Both the position numbers and the translations under genes were made by a program. Under the pieces are notes generated by a model. The model saw nothing but the letters and a program-made list of their open reading frames with translations. It searched no databases and was not told the DNA's origin. Positions 24,767 to 25,376 of a stretch of 64,000 nucleotides of DNA are shown piece by piece. Location: sequence record PV544177.1; one strand, written 5' to 3'. The DNA is from Enterococcus phage Revolver. Position 1 is the stretch's first letter. Each line of letters begins with the position of its first letter.

Positions 24767-25376
24767 CTTCTTAAAAACTCAAAAGACAATACAACAGGGG
24801 CTTTTACTCCTGCTTAACCCTATTCGTCTCATTCGGTAACATACTCAGAAAGGCTGAACCAACGAGAGCTACTCGATGATTTCTTTCTGCTTTTTAATGT
24901 ATGGTCTAGCACTGTGGCTAACAACTTTCACTTGAACATTCAGCTTTTTCTTCTTTATTGTGCAGGTTGGATTTCATATCCTACTGTGCCATAATTTAAG
25001 GCTGACTATAAGCTACTCATACCAAGTTCTTTTGTTAAACTCGTATTTCTACGATTCTCGTCAAAAGTCTGCTTTGAATTTTCTTAGGTTTGCGCTCTTT
25101 TTCAAGGAGAACCTAACTAAGATTCTTTCCAACAAGGACGTCTATTTCAGACCCCAAAAGGCTTGTACCTTGAGCCCGTCCATAGAATTTCCACACAGTG
25201 CTTTGCGTATTAGTAGCTTTTACTACTAGGTTTTACAGTTACCTGTATCATACCCAAAAGCTCTAACCAGTATCCCAACTAGAGCCTTTTATCGACTTAT
25301 CCCACACTGTCCTAGCTAGTTGCTCAAACTATCTGCACTAGGTTCCTGTTGTATTGTCTTTTCAGTTTTTAAGAAT
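24767..25376. repeat. ~610-bp ORF-less element bounded by 29-32 bp near-perfect terminal inverted repeats (TTCTTAAAAACTCAAAAGACAATACAACAGG ... CCTGTTGTATTGTCTTTTCAGTTTTTAAGAA)
   Basis: Direct reading: 28/29 (31/32) complementarity between 24767-24798 and 25345-25376. No ORF over 90 aa inside. Adjacent to the tRNA cluster. Confidence 0.55.

Follow-up and report, generated by a model that had tools for sequence, protein, structure and literature searches.

A divergent ROOL RNA gene closed by a covarying 31-nt terminal helix beside the tRNA genes of an Enterococcus phage

The ROOL class of RNAs was described in 2017 by Weinberg et al. (PMC5737381) and occurs in phages and prophages, "often near tRNA islands" (PMC5737381, PMC12286853). 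In L. salivarius, a 520-nt RNA was found independently by Cousin et al. 2017 and is more abundant than 16S rRNA; this ROOL is stable and non-essential, and its deletion pointed to no clear function (PMC5643018). From cryo-EM data, Kretsch et al. 2025 described ROOL as a homo-octamer of D4 symmetry, an RNA-only cage some 28 nm wide. Kissing loops and A-minor contacts stabilise it, the variable linker lies disordered in its interior, and the octameric state is kept at nanomolar concentrations; one proposed role is to encapsulate tRNAs, ribosomal parts or other molecules (PMC12286853). According to the summary in PMC12515178, Ling et al. 2025 determined ROOL structures from Enterococcus faecalis, an octameric nanocage, and from a Firmicutes bacterium, and described strand swapping in ROOL assembly. 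Few large RNAs of bacteria or phages have, like ROOL, a solved structure yet no known function. GOLLD (RF01998) resembles it as a large ornate phage or prophage RNA located near tRNA arrays and forming an RNA-only nanocage (PMC12286853), but the two are unrelated in sequence and fold, and GOLLD is a 14-mer where ROOL is an 8-mer.

We analysed a 64-kb stretch of DNA (hereafter the window) from Enterococcus phage Revolver (PV544177.1). A repeat search found a 31-nt inverted repeat, 97% complementary, whose arms at 24768-24798 and 25345-25375 are separated by 546 nt and differ from perfect complementarity by a single mismatch. The initial annotation had extended the repeat to 24767 and 25376. The arms and the single mismatch are as it described them, but these two outer bases each lie one base beyond the pairing, because the C at 24767 cannot pair with the T at 25376. 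When the whole window was searched for the arms with up to three mismatches, two sites only were recovered, i.e. the known pair, and the number of copies expected by chance was 0.00 (100 dinucleotide-preserving shuffles). The G+C content of the element is 0.35-0.40, and that of the AT-rich stretch at 25700-26300 is 0.17-0.30. Five minus-strand tRNA genes (Met, Pro, Leu, Arg and Trp), the tRNA cluster noted in the initial annotation, lie to the left of the element, directly beside it and within 2.7 kb, and the only sizeable open reading frame in the interior is the one of 89 aa that the initial annotation had called dubious, with a GTG start (24960-25229, plus strand).

An Rfam 15 scan of positions 22000-28000 identified the element as a ROOL RNA (RF03087) on the minus strand, at 25366..24780. 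The match scores 242.6 bits, i.e. 2.4 times the gathering score of 99.1 (E = 5.4e-55), and runs end to end over model positions 1-574 of 574 with no truncation; over its 587 nt the cmscan alignment is the exact sequence of the window. At the gathering threshold, a scan of the whole window returned this same ROOL match and the five tRNAs, nothing else, and GOLLD (RF01998) is absent from the Rfam matches in the window. With the RF03087 structure mapped through the cmscan alignment, 133 of the 151 consensus pairs are canonical in the window copy. Folding of 25375..24768 with RNAfold gave a minimum free energy of -181.9 kcal/mol (z = -6.7 against 20 shuffles), with both ends paired. The blocks AAUAGAC, GUAGC, CUGAAUG, GUGAA.GUU and UCAG are invariant in 14 diverse ROOLs, the window copy included. 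The latter has the lowest Rfam score of the 14 (242.6 vs. 260-355 bits).

On these coordinates, the ROOL gene with its full terminal helix extends over 24768..25375 on the minus strand. The right-hand repeat (25345..25375) is the 5' strand of the closing helix P1 and includes model positions 7-22, which form the corresponding strand of Rfam's outermost helix, while the left-hand repeat (24768..24798) is its 3' strand, as indicated by the repeat search, the Rfam alignment and covariation. A variable A-rich linker lies at approximately 24925..25005, where the sequence aligns to the long unpaired loop of the model and to an insert; this region (alignment columns about 436-510) is poorly conserved, with indels among relatives, and is the approximate counterpart of the stretch that the published structures show as disordered in the cage interior (PMC12286853). 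The window copy measures 587 nt over the Rfam alignment and 608 nt once P1 is counted in full; the class mean is 581 nt. It shares with the class the consensus architecture, the conserved blocks, the phage location, the same-strand tRNA adjacency and the variable internal linker.

We are therefore close to certain, at a probability of about 97%, that 24768-25375 (minus strand) carries a functional ROOL gene, with the inverted repeat as its P1 closing helix; we found nothing that contradicts family membership. The first of the readings offered by the initial annotation, a large structured non-coding RNA with paired 5' and 3' ends, on the same minus strand as the tRNAs, is thus borne out by a full-length ROOL with a covarying closing helix. 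The Rfam and RNAfold checks that it had suggested both came out in this sense. Its more specific options, a tRNA-operon leader or a ribozyme-like domain, give way to a defined RNA family for which, to our knowledge, no catalytic activity is described. This copy is of a known kind, since a standard Rfam scan suffices to detect it, its syntenic homologues number in the dozens, and its class includes a structure solved from the same host genus. It is divergent and routine, and no feature sets it apart from the family.

We then examined the closing helix in eight ROOLs of the enterococcal clade. These were aligned with MAFFT on sequence only (alignment A3), i.e. the alignment was not fitted to structure, and the P1 of the window was imposed on it. 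Over its 30 pairs, 94.4% of the cells are paired, and 14 of the 30 pairs show changes on both sides. None of 500 shuffles reached the observed paired percentage or covariation score, and when the 3' partner was slid by 1-3 columns only 33-55% of the cells were paired. At the single mismatch, the RNA has G(25363) facing G(24780), two residues that are invariant in the eight ROOLs (8/8) amid covarying neighbouring pairs. The inner part of the repeat coincides with the outermost helix of Rfam (model positions 7-22 and the 3' end); the window copy extends this helix outward to 31 nt, i.e. 30 pairs plus the fixed G-G, compared with 16 pairs in the model. The terminal duplex is not restricted to this clade: folding of the first and last 50 nt gave 24-42 pairs in 14 out of 14 ROOLs, with free energies of -24 to -47 kcal/mol (shuffle means, -11 to -18), and the sequences of the arms are unrelated between ROOL clades. 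Because the arms diverge by paired compensatory changes around an internal G-G that stays fixed, selection acts at the level of the RNA.

Outside P1, the ROOL class is described with three pseudoknots and tertiary kissing loops; the structure line in Rfam contains nested pairs only, and these consensus pairs were likewise mapped onto A3. For the full Rfam structure, 80.7% of the cells are paired, with compensatory changes in 61 of 165 pairs; again 0 of 500 shuffles reached the observed values, and slid controls gave 34-47% paired. The covariation across homologous phages that the initial annotation had proposed to look for is therefore present both in P1 and over the whole structure. An exception is formed by two of the model's long-range helices (A3 columns 251-271 with 627-642), for which only 10-41% are paired in the enterococcal clade, which may reflect either misalignment or a real local difference from the class.

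These data also bear on two readings in which the element would not be an RNA gene. An inverted duplication arisen by chance or maintained at the DNA level (cruciform, replication or packaging signal), with no role for RNA, could draw on the real DNA palindromes present in the neighbouring intergenic DNA, at 25873-26007 and 26120-26255. We consider it extremely improbable: the arms are not expected by chance, distant phages conserve the structure of the 546 nt between them, many helices showing compensatory changes, and the Rfam score and the G-U pairs are strand-specific and favour the minus strand. Equally hard to credit is a small protein gene, either the 89-aa frame or the "hypothetical proteins" that several relatives carry over the region. 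The frame exists, but it has no Pfam match, no conserved open reading frame was found (the longest frames in 7-8 homologues differ in strand, frame, position and length), and the substitution pattern follows base pairing. As the frames are not conserved, the "hypothetical protein" features over this stretch are best read as over-annotation.

The ROOL gene was then compared with those of related phages. The window contains a plus-strand open reading frame of 612 aa (28474-30312) whose product has 91% identity to the large terminase of Kochikohdavirus, and of a 12-kb piece of the window, 33-46% aligns to Kochikohdavirus genomes, with a nucleotide identity of about 82%. The window therefore belongs to an Enterococcus phage of the Herelleviridae (Brockvirinae-like). 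The large terminase is uninterrupted here, while in many related Enterococcus phages it matches in 2-3 pieces, between which HNH or homing endonuclease genes are annotated. A distant BLAST against deposited phages found the ROOL stretch in 67 records, 66 of them from Enterococcus phages; the window copy is about 71% identical to these nearest deposited homologues, with at least 80% of the query covered. The ROOLs of Enterococcus Herelleviridae (EF24C, EFDG1, ECP3 and others) reach similar Rfam scores (260-265 bits) and share the invariant G-G. In the two relatives that we inspected, EFDG1 (Schiekvirus) and EF24C (Kochikohdavirus), ROOL lies beside tRNAs on the same strand, in the neighbourhood seen in the window, and in EF24C the terminase is just downstream.

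This distribution weighs against the other proposal of the initial annotation, a MITE-like non-autonomous element that would have been mobilised by a transposase in trans and inserted in the tRNA region. Such an element would resemble the locus in its general shape only, i.e. terminal inverted repeats (31 bp, near-perfect) that enclose some 550 bp with no convincing open reading frame. The flanks, GGTAAGAGC and TTATCGATT, differ and form no direct repeat, so there is no target-site duplication, and a search of the window that allowed up to three mismatches gave no further copy of the arms. An exact arm copy was likewise not found in IMG/VR or in GTDB representative genomes, a search that excludes identical copies only. 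The homologue occurs in 67 related records, close to the number of Enterococcus records with the terminase (68), so that no presence/absence polymorphism is visible, and it sits beside tRNAs in both relatives inspected. Furthermore, the match to a structured RNA family spans the whole interior, and the arms change by compensatory substitutions around the fixed G-G mismatch. A single-copy element at a fixed syntenic position, with no duplication of its target site and with arms that covary as an RNA helix, differs from a MITE on each of these points. We therefore reject mobility, which retains a negligible probability, in favour of the ROOL gene.

To extend the comparison, IMG/VR was screened with the conserved motif CTGAATGN{4,5}GTGAAAGTT as bait, which returned many loci. 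We scanned 16 loci with Rfam, i.e. 14 from the motif search plus EFDG1 and EF24C, and found a full-length ROOL in 13 of them (260-355 bits). The remaining three (L020, L026 and L029) have no ROOL at the gathering score; the bait motif alone is therefore not diagnostic. Same-strand tRNAs surround ROOL in 11 of the 13 other ROOL loci, and the tRNA-adjacent phage location found here matches the published description (PMC5737381, PMC12286853). The spacing can be very tight: in one locus (L007), tRNAs at 5524-5610 and 6238-6321 flank a ROOL at 5607-6233, lying within 5 nt of it or overlapping its end, and in two others (L018 and L011) the gaps between ROOL and tRNA are 9-40 nt. Such spacing fits a release of ROOL by the tRNA-processing machinery. 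Other RNAs were seen on these contigs. tmRNA genes occur in the same tRNA arrays as ROOL in L013 (3098-3399, minus strand) and L005 (2457-2836, plus strand), and another ROOL-bearing contig, L014, carries a partial match to OLE RNA at 187-276 on the minus strand (52.9 bits for a threshold of 50).

In the window, the next intact gene downstream of ROOL, and the nearest tRNA, is tRNA-Trp (CCA; 24370..24443, minus strand), which is also matched by Rfam and is probably co-transcribed with ROOL. A candidate promoter for both lies at 25781..25809 on the minus strand (TTGACA, 17 nt, TG-n-TATTAT), with 11 of 12 consensus positions and an extended -10, and its block AAAAAAGTTATTGACAC..ATG.TATTAT is kept in phage EF24C. 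An extended -10 (TGTGTTATAAT) at about 25643..25633 (minus strand) is also conserved in EF24C. A G+C-rich, terminator-like hairpin follows tRNA-Trp at 24215..24194 (minus strand). From these signals, the putative transcription unit would run from the promoter through tRNA-like remnants, ROOL and a tRNA-Asp remnant to tRNA-Trp. An identical strong promoter-like site (TTGACA, 17 nt, TG-n-TATTAT) stands ahead of tRNA-Arg, at 23989..23961 (minus strand). The 513-bp spacer from tRNA-Arg to tRNA-Trp (23856-24369), which holds the terminator-like hairpin, has a raised G+C content of about 0.42, with no Rfam match and no listed open reading frame of at least 40 aa.

The tRNA complement around ROOL differs between the window and its relatives. 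In EF24C, tRNA-Asp adjoins ROOL; the window keeps only an acceptor/T-arm remnant, at 24629-24661 (minus strand), which consists of an acceptor-like 5-bp stem and a canonical T-arm (CGGGUUCGAUUCCCG) and lacks the D-arm and the anticodon arm. As it aligns with the 3' half of the EF24C tRNA-Asp beside ROOL, we read it as a decayed tRNA-Asp, which might still be a processing signal. We had also suspected, from the T-arm-like sequence at 24629-24650, a tRNA gene split by an intron. No Rfam intron matches the locus, and this T-arm lies outside the element and is part of the decayed tRNA-Asp; this candidate was rejected. In EFDG1, tRNA-Ser, tRNA-Gln and tRNA-Asn lie upstream of ROOL and are absent in the window. 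About 170 nt upstream of ROOL, a tRNA-like cloverleaf remnant is visible at about 25546-25617 (minus strand), with the T-loop UGCAAGU and no residues 8-9; no tool called it, and the homologous stretch of EF24C contains unannotated T-arm-like pieces.

By homology with the class, a sequence of events can be proposed for this locus. Transcription would start at the promoter-like site at about 25809..25781, which we consider the probable one, or else from the extended -10 at about 25643..25633, and ROOL would be transcribed together with the tRNA-like remnants and tRNA-Trp, then trimmed out of this tRNA-containing precursor. P1 would bring together the 5' and 3' ends of the RNA, with conserved multi-stem junctions and the variable linker between its arms. 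As in the published cryo-EM structures, the transcript would fold with no need for protein, and eight copies would form a hollow cage of about 28 nm that encloses the linker and is kept together by kissing loops and A-minor contacts. The window copy should thus be able to self-assemble into an octameric cage. We further considered that the cage could act with the co-transcribed tRNAs, for instance by enclosing or shielding phage tRNAs or translation components, and that the long P1 helix with its invariant G-G mismatch and the flanking tRNA-like remnants could be release signals for RNase III, RNase P or RNase Z. This idea is compatible with the same-strand tRNA arrays, the fixed mismatch, the retained acceptor/T-arm remnant and the encapsulation hypotheses (PMC12286853); we regard it as speculative and rather unlikely as formulated.

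The main value of the result concerns annotation. In the GenBank records of relatives, the ROOL stretch of about 600 bp is left blank or is overlaid with a "hypothetical protein". The expectation that standard annotation would miss the element thus holds for the deposited records, but a routine Rfam scan detects it at once. A lytic Enterococcus phage with one ROOL copy and a small set of tRNAs would be convenient for deletion and infection experiments, an opportunity that the published relatives EF24C and EFDG1 already offer.

Two further observations concern the DNA on either side of the ROOL gene. Upstream, the palindromic units at 25873-26007 and 26120-26255 are AT-rich (about 135 bp each, G+C 17-26%) and both are bounded by inverted AAAATGTCCTATT, a 13-mer that occurs 4 times where 0.27 would be expected. 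With the upstream gene's terminator on one side and the candidate ROOL promoter on the other, both units are conserved in EF24C. On the tRNA side, the segment at 22531-22611 (minus strand) folds into a clean cloverleaf with a 7-bp acceptor stem, an anticodon loop CUGUAAA (GUA, Tyr) and a long variable arm. Its T-loop is unusual (GCGACUC), it was missed by ARAGORN, and Rfam matched it only as tRNA-Sec, with a sub-threshold 29.9 bits. We read it as a probable tRNA-Tyr gene, which would bring the tRNA genes to six.
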